Positions 7,035-35,708 are shown, numbered from the stretch's first letter. The stretch is 64,000 nt of DNA from Candidatus Aminicenantes bacterium (GCA_963719985.1 CAVRDU010000005.1:1156432-1220431), one strand, 5' to 3'. The notes: generated by a model not told the origin, from the letters alone. Translations and numbers: made by a program.

Positions 7035-7059
7035 AAGACCACCTCTCGCGCCGTTTTCC

Positions 7060-8531: not shown

Positions 8532-8605
8532 TTTTCCACAGAATTTTCCACATCTGTGGAAAATCTCTCCCGGGGGGATGGCAGCCGGAAGAGGCCTGGG
8601 GATAA
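8532..8605. promoter_or_regulatory. Cluster of DnaA-box-like 9-mers upstream of dnaA (oriC / dnaA autoregulatory region)
   Basis: TTTTCCACA occurs at 8532-8540 and 8544-8552, TGTGGAAAA at 8556-8564, and TGGGGATAA (reverse complement TTATCCCCA) at 8597-8605. Each is within one mismatch of TTATCCACA. Confidence 0.6.
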
Positions 8606-25614: not shown

Positions 25615-27531
25615 ATGGACAAGCGCGCGCGGAAAGTCATCGTTCCGGCGATCTTCGCGGCCGCGGGCGTTATCGCCCTGACGGCGCAGGATCAGGGCCT
25701 GCGGGGCCGGGAGAGCTTCGAGCCGAGGCCGACGAAAGCGTACATCGTCGGGGGCGTCCGTCACGGCGCGAGCTTCTTCCCCCGGGCCGGCTACGAGTTC
25801 ACCAAGCCCAAGGCCGCCGGGGAGATGGACTTCCTCCACTACCACACCTACGACGAGGTCAACGGCTTCCTCGAGAAGTGGGCCGCGGACCACCCCGACA
25901 TCGTCGAGCTCTATTCGGTCGGGAAATCCTACGAGGGCCGGGAGATCTGGCAGATCACCATCACCAACAAGACGACCGGCAAGGACACCGACAAGCCGGC
26001 CATGTTCATCGAGGGCAACCGGCACTCCGGCGAGGTCACGGCGGCCGAGTGCGCGCTCTGGTTCGCCGACCACATCATCCGGGGCTACGGCAAGGACCCG
26101 GGGCTGACGAAGCTCGTCGATACCAAGGCGATCTACGTCCGGGTCAAGAACAATCCCGACGGCTCGATGCTCTACCTGAACACGGCCCAGTCGAACCGGA
26201 GCACGGTCCGGCCCTACGACGACGACCGCGACGGCCTTCTCGACGAGGACCCGCCCGAGGACCTCGACGGCGACGGCTTCATCCTCCAGGTCCGCAAGAA
26301 GGTCGAGCCCGGGAAGGGCACGATGGTCGTCGATCCCGACGACCCTTCGGGCCGGCTCATGAAGCGGGCCGAGCCGGGCAAGGGCGACTATGTCGTCTCC
26401 TCCGAGGGCGTCGACAACGACGGCGACGGCCGGACGAACGAGGACGGCATCGGCGGCCTGGACCTCCACCGCAACTACCCGGAGAACTGGCGGCCCATGC
26501 CCGGCCGCGACCTGACCGGACGCGGCTGGACCCAGGGCGGGGCCGGCGAGTATCCGCTCTCCGAAACCGAGACGCGGGCCGTCTTCACTTTCCTCCTCGA
26601 GCACCCCAACGTCAGCGTCGTCCAGACGATGGACACGACCGTGCCCATGCTGCTCCACGGCCCGTCGACCAGCCGGATGAGCGAGTCGATGTTCCCCGAG
26701 GACATGAAGATCTACCAGTACTTCGACGAGCAGGGCAAGAAGATCACCGGCTACGCCAGCGCCGGGGACACCTATTGGGACTACGCCAACATGGGCCGCG
26801 GCGACCGCGAGATGAGGGCCCGGGCCGCGGAGATGGGCTTCGAGGTCCCCGACGAGCCCCAGGGCAGGCCGCTCTTCGGCCACTCCCCCGACTTCGGCTA
26901 CCTCTATTACGGCGCCGTCTGGTACGGCGACGAGCTCTGGAACGGCGGCCGGCTCAAGGACTACGACGGCGACGGCCGCGTGACCGAGCTCGAGAGCCTG
27001 CGCTTCATCGACGAGGAGCTCGGCGGCCGCTATTTCAAGCCCTGGACGAAGGCCCACCACCCGGTCCTCGGCGAGGTCGAGATCGGCGGCTTCAACCCCA
27101 AGTTCTGGCGTCAGAACCCGCCCGTCGAGCTCCTCGAGGAATGGATCAAGAAGGAGGCCCTGTTCAATCTCCTCCTGGCCCAGTCGCTGCCGCAGGTGCA
27201 GGTCCTCTCCGCGGAGATGAAGCCGGTCCGGAAGGAAGCGGACACGTACGAGATCGTGGCCGTCTTCACGAACGAAGGCTTCCTGCCGACGGCCCTCAAG
27301 ATGGCCGAGCGGGTCAAGATCGTCCGGCCGGACGCGGTCTCGGTCCGGCTCCCGGCCGGGGCCGAGCTCGTCGGCGGCCGGGCCCGCCAGGAGATCGGCC
27401 ACCTCAAATCGAACGAGCGCAAAGAGGTCCGGTGGAAGATCAAGGTCAAGCCGGGCACGGCCGGCGAGGCCGAGGTCTCGATCCAGTCGACGCGGGGCGG
27501 CGTGGCCCGCAAGACTGTCAAGATCGGCTAG
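25615..27531 (+). CDS. Secreted M14-family zinc carboxypeptidase
   Basis: It has a signal peptide and an M14 core (HYHTYDEVNGFLEKWAADHPD, GNRHSGEV). It is 638 aa. Confidence 0.8.
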   Translation: MDKRARKVIVPAIFAAAGVIALTAQDQGLRGRESFEPRPTKAYIVGGVRHGASFFPRAGYEFTKPKAAGEMDFLHYHTYDEVNGFLEKWAADHPDIVELYSVGKSYEGREIWQITITNKTTGKDTDKPAMFIEGNRHSGEVTAAECALWFADHIIRGYGKDPGLTKLVDTKAIYVRVKNNPDGSMLYLNTAQSNRSTVRPYDDDRDGLLDEDPPEDLDGDGFILQVRKKVEPGKGTMVVDPDDPSGRLMKRAEPGKGDYVVSSEGVDNDGDGRTNEDGIGGLDLHRNYPENWRPMPGRDLTGRGWTQGGAGEYPLSETETRAVFTFLLEHPNVSVVQTMDTTVPMLLHGPSTSRMSESMFPEDMKIYQYFDEQGKKITGYASAGDTYWDYANMGRGDREMRARAAEMGFEVPDEPQGRPLFGHSPDFGYLYYGAVWYGDELWNGGRLKDYDGDGRVTELESLRFIDEELGGRYFKPWTKAHHPVLGEVEIGGFNPKFWRQNPPVELLEEWIKKEALFNLLLAQSLPQVQVLSAEMKPVRKEADTYEIVAVFTNEGFLPTALKMAERVKIVRPDAVSVRLPAGAELVGGRARQEIGHLKSNERKEVRWKIKVKPGTAGEAEVSIQSTRGGVARKTVKIG

Positions 27532-28909
27532 ATCGACCGGAGCCCGGCTTTCCGGCCGAGAGGCCGTAGGTCTTGACCTTGTAGGCGAGCATCCGCTCGG
27601 TGATGCCCAGCGCGCGGGCGGCCCGGCTCTTGACCCCGCCGGCCTCCCGGAGGGCCATACGGATCTCCTGCGTCTCGAGGCGGCGGACCTTGTCGACCAG
27701 GGAATCGCCGGCCGTTCCGGGATCCTCGTAGGCGGCTTCCGTGAGGCTGAGGGGAAGGTCGGCGACGCCGAGGACGTCCCGCTCGGCGAATACGACCGCC
27801 CGCTCGACGACGTTCTCGAGCTCGCGGACGTTGCCGGGATAGGCGTGGCCCACGAGGGCGCCCAGGGCCTCCCGCGTGATCCCCTGGATCTTCTTTCCCT
27901 CCCGCTCGGCGAATTTCCTGAGGAAGAGGTCGGCCAGGAGCGGGATGTCCTCCTTCCTCTTGCGGAGCGGAGGCACGGCGATGGGGATGACGTTCAGGCG
28001 GTAGAAGAGGTCGGCCCGGAACCGGCCGCCTTTCATCTGGGTTTCGAGGTCCCGGTTGGTCGCGGCGATGATCCTGACGTCGGCCCGGAGCGCCTGGCTC
28101 GAGCCGAGCCTGTAGTACTCCCGGTCCTGGAGGAAGCGCAGCAGCTTGACCTGGGCCTCGGGGGCGAGGTCGCCGATCTCGTCGAGGAAGACGGTCCCGC
28201 CGGAGGCGGCCTCGAACTTGCCGATCTTCCGCTCGTGGGCGCCGGTGAAAGACCCTTTCTCGGCCCCGAAGAGCTCCGCCTCGATGAGGGTCTCGGGGAG
28301 GGAAGGGATGTTCAGCGCGACGTACGGGCCTTTCTTTCGCGCCGAGGACTGGTGGATCATCCGGGCCACGAGGTCCTTGCCGGTCCCCGTCTCCCCGGTG
28401 ACGAGGACCGTGGCCTCGCTCCGCGCGGCCTTGAGGACAAGGCGGGCGACGTCCTCCATGAGCGGGGAGGCGAAGACGAAGTTCCGGACGCTGAGCTTCT
28501 CCTCCAGGCGCTCCTGGAGGGACGAGATCTCTTTCTTGAGCTTCTGCCGCTCCGCGGCCCGCTCGAGGACGAGGAGGAACCTCTCGAAGTCGAGCGGCTT
28601 GACGATGTAGTCGTAGGCCCCGGCGCGGACGGCCTCGACGGCCCGCTCGATGTTCCCGTAGGCGGTGACCATGATCGGCGTCACCAGGGGATTGGCCGCG
28701 AGCACGTCCCGGATGACGTCGATGCCCGTTTCGTCGCCGAGCTTGTAGTCGACGACGGCCACGTCGACCGGGTTGCGGAGCACGGCCTCGAGGGCCTCCT
28801 TCCGGGAAGCGGCCTCGACGACCGGGAAGCCGCGCGCCTCCAGGTTCTTCCGGATGAGCTGGCGCTGGACGGGATCGTCCTCGACGATCAGGATGAGGGG
28901 CTCGTTCAT
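27518..28909 (-). CDS. Sigma54-dependent response regulator (NtrC family enhancer-binding protein)
   Basis: It has a REC domain (LIVEDD...D54), an AAA+ sigma54-interaction domain (GETGTGKDL, GAFTGA-like GSFTGA, ESELFGAEKG) and a C-terminal HTH. The probable start MNEPLIL is at 28909. Confidence 0.92.
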   Translation of the reverse strand: MNEPLILIVEDDPVQRQLIRKNLEARGFPVVEAASRKEALEAVLRNPVDVAVVDYKLGDETGIDVIRDVLAANPLVTPIMVTAYGNIERAVEAVRAGAYDYIVKPLDFERFLLVLERAAERQKLKKEISSLQERLEEKLSVRNFVFASPLMEDVARLVLKAARSEATVLVTGETGTGKDLVARMIHQSSARKKGPYVALNIPSLPETLIEAELFGAEKGSFTGAHERKIGKFEAASGGTVFLDEIGDLAPEAQVKLLRFLQDREYYRLGSSQALRADVRIIAATNRDLETQMKGGRFRADLFYRLNVIPIAVPPLRKRKEDIPLLADLFLRKFAEREGKKIQGITREALGALVGHAYPGNVRELENVVERAVVFAERDVLGVADLPLSLTEAAYEDPGTAGDSLVDKVRRLETQEIRMALREAGGVKSRAARALGITERMLAYKVKTYGLSAGKPGSGRSSRS

Positions 28910-28910
28910 G

Positions 28911-30152
28911 TCACGCTCCAGGAAGCTCGATCCGGAATTCCGTCCCGTGGCCTTCGCGGCCGCGGACATCGATCGTTCCGCCGTGCGCTTCGATGATCCT
29001 TCTGGTCAGGTACAGGCCTATCCCCATCCCTTTCTCCTTGGTCGTGTAGAACGGCTCGAAGACACGGGCCGCGGCTTCAGGCGGCAGGCCGGGCCCGCCG
29101 TCGTGGACGATGACCTCGACCTTCTTGCCGATCCGCCGGCCGCGGGCCCGTACGGGCGCGTCCGGCGAGGCCTCGATGGCGTTCTTCAGGACGTTGAGGA
29201 AGGCCTGGACCAGGAGGTCCCGATCGCCGGACAGGAGGACACCCGGAGCGGGCTCGACCTCGAGGCGCGACGGCGCGCCAGGGACCTCGGCGGCCAGGCT
29301 CTCCGCGGCCTGTCGCAGAACGTCGTCGAGCGACAGGGCCTCGAGGTCCGGCCGGACGGCCTTAACGACGCGCGAGAACCGGTCGACGATGCGGGCGATC
29401 GTCCGGACCTGGGCCTTTCCGAGATCGACGTCGCTCTTGGCCTCCGGGGGGGACTTGCGGCCCAGGAGCTCGAGGGCGAGGGCCAGGCTGTTGAGGGGGT
29501 TCTTGATCTCGTGGGCGACGCCCGATGTGAACGCCGAGATCTCCCGGAACCTCTCTTTCTCGAGCCGCTCGGTCTCGGCCTCGCGGGCCTTGGCCACGTA
29601 ATCCGACTGGAGCCGGTAGAGGCCCCGGAAGAAGATGGCGCCGGCGAGAAGGATGAGCCCGGCGATGAGGTAGGAGGTTCGCCGGGACGAGGCGATCATC
29701 TCCTCCATCCCCGCCAGGGCATAGCCCAGGTAGAGGAAGTACGCGCGGCCGCCAGCGGCCGAGAAGGCCGAAAGAGAGCTGTAGATCTTGCCGGCGGGGG
29801 ACTCGATGACGCTCGATCCCCCGGACCGGGCGTCCCTGAGGGAGATCGGGAGGTAGCCCTCGTATCGGGAGTTCCAGGCCAGGACGTTCTTCTCCGCGTC
29901 GAGGAGGGCGACGAAATAGATGTTCTCCCCGGACAGGATGGCCTCGAGGACCTCCTCGGGGGCCCTGCCCTCGTCGAGGAAGTGGGAAGCCGTCGTCCGG
30001 AGGATGCCCGACGTGGCCTCGAGCTGATCGTGGACGAGCCCTTCCGTCCGGCGCTTCAGGTCGGCCTGGGCGAGGACGGACGACAGGGCGAAGAAGACGA
30101 GCACGCCCAGGAAGGGGAGGACGAAGAAAAGGAGGACGCTGCGCCGCTTCAA
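28911..30152 (-). CDS. Sensor histidine kinase with periplasmic sensing domain
   Basis: It has two TM helices flanking a roughly 140-aa periplasmic domain, a HisKA domain (SGVAHEIKNPLNSL) and a HATPase_c domain (HDGGPGLP, GMGIGL). Confidence 0.9.
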   Translation of the reverse strand: MKRRSVLLFFVLPFLGVLVFFALSSVLAQADLKRRTEGLVHDQLEATSGILRTTASHFLDEGRAPEEVLEAILSGENIYFVALLDAEKNVLAWNSRYEGYLPISLRDARSGGSSVIESPAGKIYSSLSAFSAAGGRAYFLYLGYALAGMEEMIASSRRTSYLIAGLILLAGAIFFRGLYRLQSDYVAKAREAETERLEKERFREISAFTSGVAHEIKNPLNSLALALELLGRKSPPEAKSDVDLGKAQVRTIARIVDRFSRVVKAVRPDLEALSLDDVLRQAAESLAAEVPGAPSRLEVEPAPGVLLSGDRDLLVQAFLNVLKNAIEASPDAPVRARGRRIGKKVEVIVHDGGPGLPPEAAARVFEPFYTTKEKGMGIGLYLTRRIIEAHGGTIDVRGREGHGTEFRIELPGA

Positions 30153-30583
30153 ATGCCGCCGAACCTCTTGATGCCCCGTTTCCGCTGTCCGCCCTGCCAG
30201 CGGGGGAAGCCCCGCTTGTCCCGGAGCGTGAGCGTTTCGCCCCGGAACTGGAGCTCGCGGGCGATGATGGTCGCCTTCCCGTCGGGGGTCTCCGAGAGGG
30301 AGCCTATGCCCTTCACCCTCTCGCCGCCGTGGATGTCCTCTTGGAAGAACCAGGACGGGCTGACCTCGACGCTGACCATCTTCTCCCGTCCGGGCGCCTC
30401 GATGCGGAGGACGAGAAAGGGGGCCGTCCCCTGGTAGCGGGGTTCGAGGACGATCTCCCGGACCGTCCCTTCGAAGCGGACCTCCTTGTCGACGTCGTAG
30501 AAGTGTCCGGCGGCCGTCTGCCCCGCGGCCGGGACCGCGGCGAGCGCCGCGAGCAACGGGATGAGCCAGGCCGTGCGTTTCAT
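30149..30583 (-). CDS. Small periplasmic protein (signal peptide), hypothetical
   Basis: The 144-aa protein starts MKRTAWLIPLLAALAAVPAAGQ. The longer ORF extension to 30988 is spurious. Confidence 0.6.
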   Translation of the reverse strand: MKRTAWLIPLLAALAAVPAAGQTAAGHFYDVDKEVRFEGTVREIVLEPRYQGTAPFLVLRIEAPGREKMVSVEVSPSWFFQEDIHGGERVKGIGSLSETPDGKATIIARELQFRGETLTLRDKRGFPRWQGGQRKRGIKRFGGI

Positions 30584-31833: not shown

Positions 31834-31885
31834 GAATAAAGGGCCTCCCCCCCGCGCCGGCGGAGGGGAGGCCTCGGATAACGGG

Positions 31886-32515
31886 TCAGCGGCCGCCCTT
31901 TTTCTGCGTGCCGCCCTTGGGCCCGGCGCCGTTGCCGGCCCCGGCCGCCTTTCCGGCGCCCTGGATGCCGGCGCGGAAAGAGCCCTTGCCGAAGCTGGAC
32001 TTGGTCACCTTGCCGGCCTTCTGCCCCTGGGTCATCTCGGTCTCGTCCGGCTGGCCGATCTTGTGCTGGCCTTGGTAGCCGGATCCGTCCTCGGGCTTGA
32101 CCCAGTCGGGGTCTTGGCCGTTGGGGACTCCGTCGCCGTCGTCGTCGCGCGCGAGCTGGTAGGCGTAGCCCTCAGCCGTGCCGGCCGCGGCGCCCTTCTT
32201 GTTCTGGGCCTTGTCGCCGGTCCCGTCCCCGGGCTTGGCCCAGTCGGGGTCCTGGCCGTTGGGGACGCCGTCCCCGTCGTGGTCCTTGGCGCGGTCGTTG
32301 ATCCCGTCGCCGTTCTCGTCGATGAAGGCGACGCGATTGCGATGCTGGAACTCCGGCTTCGCCTGGACCTTGTTCTGCTGGGTCTCGCCCTTGGCCTTCA
32401 GCCCGGTCTTGATCTGGGCCTTCTCCTGGGCCTTGGTCGCGGTCTGGTCCTGAGCGGCCGCGAAGAGCATGCCGACCATCAGGATCCCGACCATGATCGT
32501 GAACATCTTTTTCAT
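31886..32515 (-). CDS. Secreted protein with thrombospondin type 3-like Ca-binding repeats (DGDGVPNGQDPDW x2)
   Basis: It has a signal peptide (MKKMFTIMVGILMVGMLFAAA) and a GGAGG RBS. It is 210 aa, with Asp/Gly-rich Ca-binding repeat motifs. Confidence 0.7.
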   Translation of the reverse strand: MKKMFTIMVGILMVGMLFAAAQDQTATKAQEKAQIKTGLKAKGETQQNKVQAKPEFQHRNRVAFIDENGDGINDRAKDHDGDGVPNGQDPDWAKPGDGTGDKAQNKKGAAAGTAEGYAYQLARDDDGDGVPNGQDPDWVKPEDGSGYQGQHKIGQPDETEMTQGQKAGKVTKSSFGKGSFRAGIQGAGKAAGAGNGAGPKGGTQKKGGR

Positions 32516-32551
32516 CTTATGACCTCCTAAGTCATGGATGCCAGACATATA

Positions 32552-32569
32552 TGCGAAAGGCGTGCCAAC
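32552..32569 (-). promoter_or_regulatory. Sigma54 (-24/-12) promoter TTGGCACGCCTTTCGCAT driving the 31886-32515 gene and the downstream operon
   Basis: The minus-strand sequence TTGGCACG-N4-TCGCAT is one mismatch from the TTGGCACG-N4-TTGCA consensus. It lies about 35 nt upstream of the start codon. An AT-rich tract and palindromes further upstream could be IHF or EBP binding sites. Confidence 0.65.
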
Positions 32570-32680
32570 ATGGATATATAAGAAAACAAAAAAGATATAA
32601 AAATCTGCGGAGCCGCGGACCGACAAAAATGTCGGACCGAACGACATTTTCGGCATCCGATGCCCGCGTCGGCGGATTCC

Positions 32681-32688
32681 TGTATAAT
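32681..32688 (+). promoter_or_regulatory. Extended -10 element TGTATAAT upstream of the ECF sigma gene
   Basis: TGTATAAT lies 80 nt upstream of the ATG at 32770. Confidence 0.35.
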
Positions 32689-32769
32689 GGAGTGGATCGC
32701 CAGGCCCTTCGGAAGATTTCAACCCTCCCCCCGTCTAATAGGGTGCGGAGGACGAGTGAGAATATCCGC

Positions 32770-33348
32770 ATGGAAGAGAAACAGCTGGTCCGACTGGCCC
32801 AGGAAGGAAGCGCGGAGGCTTTCGAGGAGCTGGTCAGGAGATTCCAGCCCAAGGTGTTCAGCATGGCATTGAGCTTCACGCGCAACCGGCAGGCGTCCGA
32901 CGACCTGGCCCAGGAGGTCTTCCTGAAGGCCTATCTCGCCCTGCCCCGGTTCCACGGGAAGTCGGAGTTCGGGACCTGGCTCTACCGCATATCGGTCAAC
33001 CACATCAAGGACTTTCTGCGCAAGAAGGGCCGGGCCAAGGAAGTCTCGCTCGACGACGTCCGCGAGATCTCCTTCTCGGACCGGGAACAGACGGAGCGCG
33101 CGGAGGAAGAGAGGGAGATCGAGGACCGCCGGACGCTCGTGCGGAGGTTCGTCGAGGCCCTGCCCGAGAAGTACCGGGTCATCCTGACGCTCCGGGACAT
33201 CCAGGGCCTGGCCTACGAGGACATCTCCCGGGTCCTCAAGCTCTCGCCCGGGACGGTCGACTCGCGGCTCCACCGGGCGCGCCGGATGCTCCGCGTCAAG
33301 CTGGCTCCGCATCTCGCCGGCGAAGGAGGGACACATGAACTGTCGTAA
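32770..33348 (+). CDS. ECF-subfamily RNA polymerase sigma factor
   Basis: It has sigma70 regions 2 and 4 (LAQEVFLKAYLALPRF and YRVILTLRDIQGLAYEDISRVLKLSPGTVDSRLHRAR) and is 192 aa. Confidence 0.9.
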   Translation: MEEKQLVRLAQEGSAEAFEELVRRFQPKVFSMALSFTRNRQASDDLAQEVFLKAYLALPRFHGKSEFGTWLYRISVNHIKDFLRKKGRAKEVSLDDVREISFSDREQTERAEEEREIEDRRTLVRRFVEALPEKYRVILTLRDIQGLAYEDISRVLKLSPGTVDSRLHRARRMLRVKLAPHLAGEGGTHELS

Positions 33349-34275: not shown

Positions 34276-34287
34276 AGGAGACACGCC

Positions 34288-35708
34288 ATGAAAAAGAAGG
34301 TCATCTGGATCATCGTCGCCCTGGTCGTCGTGGCCGGGGCCATCCTCGGCCTGACCGTCTTCCGCAACGGGAAGGACGGCAAGGTCGAATATCGGACCGA
34401 GGCCGTCAGCCGGGGCGACATCGAGGCCCTGGTCGTCACGTCCGGGACGCTCAATCCTCTCGAGACGGTCGACGTCGGGGCCCAGGTCTCGGGCAAGATC
34501 GTCGAGCTCTACGCCGACTTCAACTCCCAGGTCACCAAGGGCCAGGTCGTGGCCGAGCTCGACCAGGAGCCCCTGAAGATGAAGATCGACCAGAACGAGG
34601 CCAACTACAAGAGCCGCGTCGCTTCTCTGGACCGGTCCAAGGTCAACCTGCAGACCGCCGAGAAGAACCTCGAGCGGGCCAAGTCGCCTCTTCGCCAAGG
34701 ACCTCATCTCGATCGAGGAGATGGACGCCGCCGAGGCGAACTACCTCAACGCCAAGAGCGACCTCGTCTCCGCCGAGGCCAGCCTGGCCCAGGCCAAGAG
34801 CACGCTCGACCTGAGCAAGGTCGACCTCGGATACGCCGTCATCAAGGCGCCGGTCGACGGGGTCGTCATCACCCGGAAGGTCAACATCGGCCAGACCCTC
34901 CAGTCGAGCTACCAGGCCCCGGTCCTGTTCCAGGTGGCCACCGACCTGACCAAGATGAAGGTCGAGTGCAGCGTCGACGAGTCCGACATCGGCAAGGTCA
35001 AGGAAGGGCAGAAGGTCCGGTTCACGGTCGAAGCTTACCCCACCGAGAACTTCAACGGCATCGTCCAGCAGGTCCGCTTCTCGCCCGAGACCGTCCAGAA
35101 CGTCGTCACGTACACGACGATCGTCAGCGTCGAGAACCCCGCGAAGAAGCTCCTCCCCGGCATGACGGCGACGGTGTCCATCATCGTCGGCGAGGCCAAG
35201 AACGTCCTCCGGGTCCCCAACGCCGCCCTCCGGTTCACGCCCATCCTCACTCCCGAGGAGATGGAGAAGCTGCTGACGGAGATGCGGGACAAGCTGATGG
35301 CCCAGCGACAGGCCGAAGGCGGCCAGCCGGCCGGCGCCCAGCCGGGCGCCAAGGTCAGCGGCGGGGCCGCTCCGGCCGCGGCCCGGCCGCAAGGCCAGGG
35401 CGGGCGCGATGATGTTTCCGGGCCAGGGCGGCGGCGAAGGCCAGGCCGGCCGGGCCCGCCAGCAGGCGCCCCGGATCTGGATCAAGGGAGAGAACGGGAA
35501 GCTCCTGCCGGTCATGGTCCGGACGGGCGTCGCGGACACAAGCTACACGGAGATCGCCCGGGCCATCGGCGCCGAGCTCAAGGAGGGCGATGTCCTCGTC
35601 ACCGGAACGCTGACGGCGTCGTCCAGGACAACGAACACCGGCATGAACCAGATGATGTTCATGGGCGGCCCGGCGCCGGCGGTAGGCTCGGCCCGGCTGA
35701 GGAGAACG
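34288..35708 (+). CDS. macA: MacA/HlyD-family efflux periplasmic adaptor; two +1 frameshifts (near 34683 and 35398), likely assembly indels
   Basis: The N-terminal part is in frame 1, the middle in frame 2 (from 34721) and the C-terminal part in frame 3 (from about 35400). No in-frame stop separates it from the macB ATG. Confidence 0.8.

Follow-up and report, generated by a model that had tools for sequence, protein, structure and literature searches.

A conserved putative sigma-54 promoter with tandem enhancer sites between two divergent operons of Candidatus Aminicenantes

Activators of sigma-54 promoters usually bind about 100-150 bp upstream and act through DNA looping, and their AAA+ ring remodels the closed complex of the RNA polymerase via the GAFTGA loop (PMC7057263). 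ZraR acts from a single intergenic region on promoters of opposite direction (PMC4987338). In the Desulfovibrio vulgaris orp1/orp2 system both promoters are sigma-54 dependent and binding of the integration host factor (IHF) was demonstrated experimentally (PMC3897727). A link between sigma-54 and the cell exterior is a known theme (PMC3162934). Here we analyse the gap between two divergent start codons (32516-32769, 254 bp) in a stretch of 64,000 nucleotides from a Candidatus Aminicenantes bacterium (GCA_963719985.1, CAVRDU010000005.1:1156432-1220431), the whole of which is called the window below. The gap separates a minus-strand cluster (genes A, B and C, a histidine kinase and an NtrC-family response regulator, hereafter the activator) from a plus-strand operon headed by an extracytoplasmic function (ECF) sigma factor gene; the ATG of gene A occupies 32515-32513 and that of the ECF gene begins at 32770. 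The G+C content of the gap is 50%, against 66% in the whole window. An earlier note on this DNA had proposed a control region shared by a sigma-54 operon and the ECF operon. Our analysis indicates that the minus-strand half of the gap is very probably a standard enhancer-dependent sigma-54 promoter for gene A, and that the plus-strand half holds separate, putative promoters of the ECF operon (Table 1).

The sigma-54 promoter itself, which the earlier note did not report, is present upstream of gene A. With up to one mismatch allowed, TGGCACGCCTTTCGCA is the sole match to TGGCAC-N5-TTGCW across the 64 kb (it has one mismatch), and it is also the single GG-N10-GC candidate in the gap when both strands are checked; the ECF strand of the gap has none. 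It is located 52 nt 5' of the gene A start codon, on the correct strand, and the chance of a sigma-54 match at that spot is about 0.001 (0.67 x 254/128000). Scanning of species-representative genomes with an alignment of gene B homologues yielded 35 Aminicenantes loci, 34 of whose upstream regions were aligned, gap-free, on TGGCAC. The order A-B-C-kinase-regulator is kept in all 35, with protein B identity down to 37%, and homologues of gene A follow the promoter in the related loci. In each locus extending this far, TGGCAC-N5-xxGC stands at the same place and on the same strand, ahead of the homologue of gene A (or B), and the whole arrangement upstream of A (two palindromes, spacer, TGGCAC-N5-xxGC) is found in 34/34 loci, most of them with a leader of about 26 nt. 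The strict sigma-54 pattern, searched in about 390 kb of these loci, detects the site here in 29 of the 35 relatives and none elsewhere; three relatives escape it through a departing -12 region. The mean information in the promoter is 1.18 bits per column over the 34 aligned loci.

Upstream of the promoter there are two tandem sites of the form CGACA-N4-TGTCG. All the strings quoted in the earlier note are in the window: its AT tract, its two palindromes and TGTATAAT (32681-32688). Of the palindromes, CCGACAAAAATGTCGG (32620-32635) has perfect 6-bp arms around an AAAA centre, and CCGAACGACATTTTCGG (32637-32653) has arms of just 5 bp (CCGAA/TTCGG). The two are merely adjacent, not overlapping as had been stated; it is a third inverted repeat, AAAATGTCG-N7-CGACATTTT (32626-32650, 9/9 arms), that bridges and overlaps both. 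The parsing of the second palindrome also needs correction: its CCGAA/TTCGG arms mix the distal site with the stretch between the sites, the conserved units being two tandem 14-mers. Such repeats are not above chance within the window (13 perfect inverted repeats whose arms measure 9 bp or more, versus 8.2 +/- 4.1 in Markov simulations; two matches to CGACANNNNTGTCG with up to one mismatch versus 2.4 expected), and these in-window statistics were not used as evidence: the significance of the sites comes from their conservation in the 34 related loci.

That conservation is strong. The palindromes are kept in all 34 compared loci, in fixed register with the -24/-12 promoter, in agreement with the earlier proposal that they are upstream activator sequences for the NtrC-family regulator. 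In the proximal site the two half-sites are found, with at most one mismatch, in 33/34 and 30/34 loci, and N4 is 96% A/T; in the distal site the conserved half is found in 34/34 and the degenerate half in 17/34 loci at the same threshold, and the A/T content of both N4 centres is 93-96%. In the window the promoter-proximal half of the distal site is perfect and its other half degenerate; this half-site, the furthest from the promoter, is degenerate throughout the window's clade and intact in more distant clades, where the palindrome is full. From centre to centre, the sites are separated by 21 bp in 23 loci, by 20 bp in 10 and by 19 bp in one, and the 5-7 bp between the sites are variable and GC-rich (32% A/T). 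Information averages 0.92 and 0.83 bits per column over the two sites, 0.34 between them and 0.18 in the upstream flank, and exact matches to the palindrome in the same 390 kb occur at this place only. That the centres are A/T-rich speaks for CGACA-N4-TGTCG as the unit that a dimer would bind, and the two dyads fall within the range of 80-150 bp upstream, on the same helix face and at a fixed distance from the promoter. They are most likely the activator's enhancer rather than a shared operator, because the module stays with gene A whereas its distance to the motifs on the ECF side varies.

The AT-rich tract between the enhancer and the promoter retains its size and not its sequence. Its core (32570-32605) has a G+C content of 17%, and only two spots in the 64 kb are as AT-rich (the other is a 36-nt stretch near 7050). 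The 60-bp tract of the earlier note, quoted as CATGG...AAATCT (32569-32606), is present and includes part of the sigma-54 promoter that had gone unreported. Over the 34 loci the spacer measures 53-55 bp, with a G+C content of 0.22-0.47 in the correctly parsed loci and poor sequence conservation. The distance between the sites plus the gap to TGGCAC adds up to 74 bp except in L008 and L010 (75 bp), the value of 48 in L015 being a padding artefact; consequently, the position of the distal site is near-constant. These data indicate a constraint on geometry and bendability, and the tract fits the looping or bending role suggested for it. The IHF site also suggested is unproven: nothing in the window spacer comes closer to the consensus WATCAANNNNTTR than three mismatches. 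With up to one mismatch, WATCAANNNNTTR is found in 11 of the 34 spacers versus 3.3 +/- 1.7 in shuffles (about threefold), and these weak IHF-like matches of the relatives often lie at one spacer position, around 50 nt 5' of the predicted start. No IHF/HU homologue was detected by tblastn in the window or in the Aminicenantes loci, using the E. coli IhfA and HupA sequences.

The candidate for binding the enhancer is encoded by the last gene of the same cluster. The activator comprises a receiver domain, a Sigma54_activat domain (Pfam, E=2e-66) and an HTH_8 domain (E=2e-10); its GAFTGA-type loop reads GSFTGA at residue 219, and it is the only activator in the locus. Among NCBIfam models it comes nearest to AtoC and ZraR, without reaching the cut-off of either, and the nearest solved structures are Aquifex NtrC1 and ZraR. 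The recognition helix, GITERMLxYK, is conserved in all loci, in parallel with the sites.

From the motifs, their conservation and spacing, and the protein domains we infer activator binding, looping, start sites, read-through and sigma dependence, as follows. The histidine kinase would phosphorylate the activator, whose dimers would bind the two tandem CGACA-N4-TGTCG sites near -87 and -108; the 21 bp between them amount to two helical turns, so that both sites are on the same face of the DNA. The activator would then assemble into its AAA+ ring, and the 53-bp spacer, bending by itself or with an HU/IHF-like protein, would bring the ring to the closed complex of sigma-54 RNA polymerase at TGGCAC-N5-TCGC. 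ATP hydrolysis would open the promoter, with transcription starting near 32541 to give the gene A mRNA. The plus-strand half would work separately, from a sigma-70-type -10 element and an ECF-type promoter that is probably autoregulated, to express an operon coding for the sigma factor, an anti-sigma factor, a Spy-like protein and MacAB-TolC-like efflux proteins.

The predicted start lies 12 nt downstream of the -12 GC, the established sigma-54 spacing. Where the start codon is well placed, TGGCAC is 50-53 nt from it; the distance is larger in the other loci (57-81 nt in L021, L024, L026 and L027). The leader can form a hairpin by pairing of ATGAC (32535-32531) with GTCAT (32523-32519), which leaves the Shine-Dalgarno sequence largely within the loop; the hairpin is present in most relatives, among which there are similar hairpins and also hairpins pairing with the Shine-Dalgarno sequence. 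The terminator-like hairpin at the other end of gene A is kept in nearly all relatives, both arms having changed while the stem is preserved, and the ribosome-binding site and start codon of gene B follow some 25 nt beyond it. Because this hairpin is kept, the sigma-54 promoter probably yields mainly gene A; expression of B, C, the kinase and the activator would require read-through, and an attenuated positive feedback would result. A sigma-70-like match upstream of gene B (31829-31802) was rejected as a promoter: its -10 shares bases with the ribosome-binding site and start codon of gene B, which are conserved.

Table 1 Positions of the features in the gap and in the flanking minus-strand cluster (window coordinates; features predicted from the sequence).
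Feature	Positions	Strand	Remarks
Sigma-54 (-24/-12) promoter TGGCACGCCTTTCGCA	32567-32552	-	GG 32566-32565, GC 32554-32553
Proximal enhancer site CGACAAAAATGTCG	32621-32634	.	perfect CGACA-N4-TGTCG, centre near -86.5
Distal enhancer site CGACATTTTCGGCA (+), TGCCGAAAATGTCG on the gene A strand	32642-32655	.	centre near -107.5
AT-rich spacer, 53 bp	32568-32620	.	36% G+C; gene A strand with runs of T5, T6 and T4
Gene A 5' leader, predicted, about 26 nt	32516-32541	-	Shine-Dalgarno GGAGG 32527-32523
Gene A	31886-32515	-	secreted 209-aa protein with two DGDGVPNGQDPDW repeats; nearest gene downstream of the sigma-54 promoter
Terminator-like hairpin	31842-31873	-	directly 3' of gene A; 14-bp stem with 12 G-C pairs, then T-rich CTTTATTCTT
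Gene B	30580 to ~31809	-	signal peptide, modelled 16-strand beta-barrel
Gene C	30149-30583	-	weak MamS-like match
Histidine kinase	28911-30152	-	ZraS among the best NCBIfam matches, score below the equivalog cut-off
NtrC-family response regulator	27518-28909	-	final gene of the A-B-C-kinase-regulator cluster
P1 block GGATTCCTGTATAAT	32674-32688	+	sigma-70-type -10 TATAAT at 32683-32688, facing the ECF operon
P2, ECF-type promoter GGAAGA-N15-CGTCTAA	32711-32738	+	predicted start near 32745; Shine-Dalgarno GGAGGA 32747-32752

On the plus strand, the ECF operon has two candidate promoters of its own, P1 and P2, the second of which the earlier note had missed. The TATAAT of P1 shows no variation wherever the ECF operon is adjacent, and in L007 the same type of hexamer precedes another divergent gene by about 30 nt. 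A sigma-70 scan of 32300-33000 returned no -35/-10 pair, so the case for the TATAAT element comes from conservation alone. The earlier note had called it an extended -10; the hexamer is fully conserved, but the TG directly abuts it (cTGTATAAT) instead of standing one base upstream, and is replaced by TC or CC in a distant clade, so P1 is a probable housekeeping -10 and not a canonical extended one. The near-palindrome GGAWTCC (32674-32680 in the window) is conserved and touches the TATAAT, and 5' of it, within the 20-30 bp before the hexamer, most loci carry a dyad that is rich in G+C apart from an A/T-rich centre and varies in sequence (in the window, GGCATC-C-GATGCC). A LexA box suggested by CTGTATAAT was discarded, as judged by eye, since the right half-site is missing.

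Autoregulated ECF promoters have an AAC-containing -35 and a CGT-containing -10 element, about 16-17 nt apart. GGAAGA-N15-CGTCTAA is the sole exact match to its own pattern in the window (the others have one or two mismatches), and among the 23 relatives with an adjacent operon CGTCTAA always starts 38 nt before the ECF ATG, L026 alone differing (42 nt). Second copies of GGAAGA-N15-CGTCTAA precede other genes in L026 and L035. Together this agrees with the general form of ECF promoters and suggests that P2 is autoregulated. An in-frame GTG at 32743 was considered as the ECF start and rejected: the reading is not open in L026, and the ATG at 32770 was kept. Relatives with a longer gap (L002-L005, L008-L012, L017, L020-L025, L031-L032) have an extra conserved ECF-promoter-like element between the TATAAT block and P2 (GGAAC/GAAAC/GCAAC-N17-GTT), absent from the window's short version.

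The juxtaposition of these promoters with the enhancer bears on whether control by the palindromes, via the activator or some other factor, extends to the divergent ECF operon, for instance with the activator at the distal site repressing or activating the TATAAT promoter; the earlier note had indeed considered them possible operator sites coupling the two modules. The operons are divergently adjacent in 24 of the 35 loci. In the 12 loci of the window's sub-clade, enhancer and TATAAT block are always separated by 42-43 bp, and the distal site would be about 40-53 bp upstream of a start near 32695, at a promoter that lacks a -35. At glnA, NtrC sites overlap and repress sigma-70 promoters, which gives a precedent for such an operator. 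However, the constant 42-43 bp may only mirror close relatedness. Across all the loci the enhancer is 36-293 bp from TATAAT and 92-354 bp from CGTCTAA (36-354 bp for the ECF side as a whole), whereas its distance to TGGCAC is fixed. The enhancer-promoter module is also present with gene A in seven loci in which the ECF operon is not adjacent, being about 3 kb off in L027-L029 and not found in the fetched stretch of L007, L016, L030 and L033, and the ECF strand offers no sigma-54 candidate. Since the distances within the module are fixed and those on the ECF side vary, and since the module persists without an ECF neighbour, the gap is at least not a shared control region as a general rule, and the coupling proposed earlier is not supported. 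We therefore regard it as unlikely that the palindromes serve as a shared operator, and give only a slim chance to a phosphorylated activator with two jobs at a single pair of sites, driving the sigma-54 operon of gene A and modulating the TATAAT promoter of the ECF/Spy-like/MacAB-TolC operon; if true, this would join a two-component system and an ECF sigma pathway in one Aminicenantes-specific envelope-stress circuit.

Two further explanations concern the nature of the palindromes. Another transcription factor, not encoded in the locus, might bind them while the activator binds elsewhere or acts from solution. Nothing speaks directly for this, although the motif is assigned to the activator by neighbourhood and the families that recognise 14-bp palindromes with A/T centres are numerous. 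We consider this improbable, given that the motif travels with the operon and the activator across deep divergence, always at enhancer distance from the promoter, that the helix-turn-helix of the activator is conserved in parallel, and that no other regulator gene is conserved alongside. Still more remote is the reading of the inverted repeats as an RNA or DNA hairpin (a terminator or processing site), or as chance repeats in an AT-rich gap. Their numbers in the window do not exceed chance, as reported above, and the bridging repeat could form a 9-bp stem; against this, the half-site sequences themselves are conserved and show no covariation, there is neither a T-tail nor a convergent gene end here, and the register with TGGCAC is fixed in 34 loci. 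A scan of 32200-33100 against Rfam, with E up to 1, found no known RNA, so that known riboswitches, leaders and small RNAs were not considered further.

The enhancer-dependent promoter of gene A, which we prefer to these alternatives, has its own difficulties. The -12 element is TCGC and not TTGC, and it varies between relatives. The gene rpoN was absent from the window and the fetched loci by tblastn with a C-terminal fragment of E. coli RpoN; the presence of sigma-54 in the host is deduced from the activator and the promoter motif, and no paper naming Aminicenantes together with sigma-54 or rpoN was found in the searchable library. The distal site of the window has only one good half, and the unit bound by one dimer is ambiguous, CGACA-N4-TGTCG or the bridging, GlrR-like TGTCG-N7-CGACA. 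Given the strong terminator-like hairpin that follows gene A, the kinase and the activator could be autoregulated only through putative read-through. On the ECF side, the sigma-70-type element lacks a -35, and the model assigns no role to the adjoining conserved GGAWTCC.

Scanning of metagenome contigs with CGACAANNTTGTCG-N50-57-TGGCAC gave mostly chance matches (without the -12 GC, with a GC-rich spacer and without a second site), as expected when a pattern with 18 specified bases meets so large a collection. Among the matches listed, at least about 10-12 had all the features, so that the scan does not amount to a regulon census; these precede A/B homologues or other small secreted or lipoprotein genes. 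The module may have variant cargo in other lineages: in three metagenome contigs (L053, L075 and L121) the two sites, the AT-rich spacer and the sigma-54 promoter precede other first genes, which, from their translations only and without a family scan, look like genes for a ferritin-like protein (DUF2202-type), a lipoprotein and a Cys-rich secreted protein.

Neither gene A nor gene B matched any Pfam or NCBIfam family. The structure model of the gene B product (mean predicted local distance difference test score, pLDDT, of 77; disordered Gly-rich loop at residues 194-234) suggests that it is probably an outer-membrane protein; its homologues are numerous, and the sources that name an organism give Candidatus Aminicenantes or Acidobacteriota. 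According to Pfam, the plus-strand operon encodes the ECF sigma factor, a zf-HC2 anti-sigma factor and an LTXXQ (Spy/CpxP-like) protein, followed by genes that look MacA-, MacB- and TolC-like as read from their translations, without a family scan. The MacA-like (HlyD family) gene (34276-35672, plus strand) is spread across three reading frames in the window and is a single open reading frame of about 460 aa in L002, L006 and L013, which implies two frameshifts in the window (near 34690 and near 35350-35450); it is either a pseudogene or an assembly error. Far from the gap, the window also has a perfect palindrome, TTTTCCACATCTGTGGAAAA, at 8544-8563, with a longer flanking repeat around it (8534-8564).

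The value of the locus is in its detail. For an uncultured phylum without genetics, the analysis offers a base-resolution prediction of a promoter, two activator sites, a spacer and two more promoters; CGACA-N4-TGTCG and GGAAGA-N15-CGTCTAA can be used to search Aminicenantes genomes for both regulons; and a spacer whose length is strictly kept without its sequence represents a clean natural case of constrained enhancer-promoter geometry. As the mechanism is textbook, the interest in general terms is modest; what appears new and uncharacterised is this promoter, for which the comparative evidence is unusually clear, in organisms that are uncultured.

Compared with known systems, the predicted arrangement is closest in layout to the glnAp2-type NtrC promoters, which share the two tandem dyad sites about 90-110 bp upstream of a -24/-12 element (PMC7057263), the whole-turn spacing of the sites, and an activator composed of receiver, AAA+ and Fis-type helix-turn-helix domains. 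Here, in contrast, the site is CGACA-N4-TGTCG, which differs from the NtrC consensus, the activator does not reach the cut-off of the NCBIfam NtrC model, the targets are secreted repeat and beta-barrel proteins instead of nitrogen assimilation, and the spacer is an AT-rich tract of conserved length. The ZraSR-ZraP system of E. coli and Salmonella resembles the locus in its kinase and activator (ZraS and ZraR are among the best NCBIfam and PDB matches) and in being a divergent envelope-related locus with a Spy/CpxP/ZraP-like LTXXQ protein opposite; it differs in having two sigma-54 promoters where we find a single one, on the minus strand only. In addition, the LTXXQ gene of the window belongs to an ECF sigma operon with its own promoters, the scores are below the ZraR/ZraS equivalog cut-offs, and A, B and C are without Zra counterpart. 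Outside the enterobacteria, the orp1/orp2 region of the anaerobe Desulfovibrio vulgaris also combines divergent genes, activator sites and an AT-rich bend element between enhancer and promoter (PMC3897727), whereas in the window one side is sigma-70-type plus ECF-type and the IHF match has three mismatches. The GlrR (QseF) sites at glmY/glmZ, TGTC-N10-GACA, have the same TGTC/GACA core as the TGTC-N9-GACA of the window; however, the spacing is 1 bp off, the A/T centres argue for CGACA-N4-TGTCG, and GlrR ranks only eighth among the NCBIfam models for the activator. Finally, P2 is like the autoregulated ECF promoters in its location just upstream of the ECF sigma/anti-sigma genes, its fixed distance and its extra copies in relatives, and unlike them in its -35, which reads AAG and not AAC.

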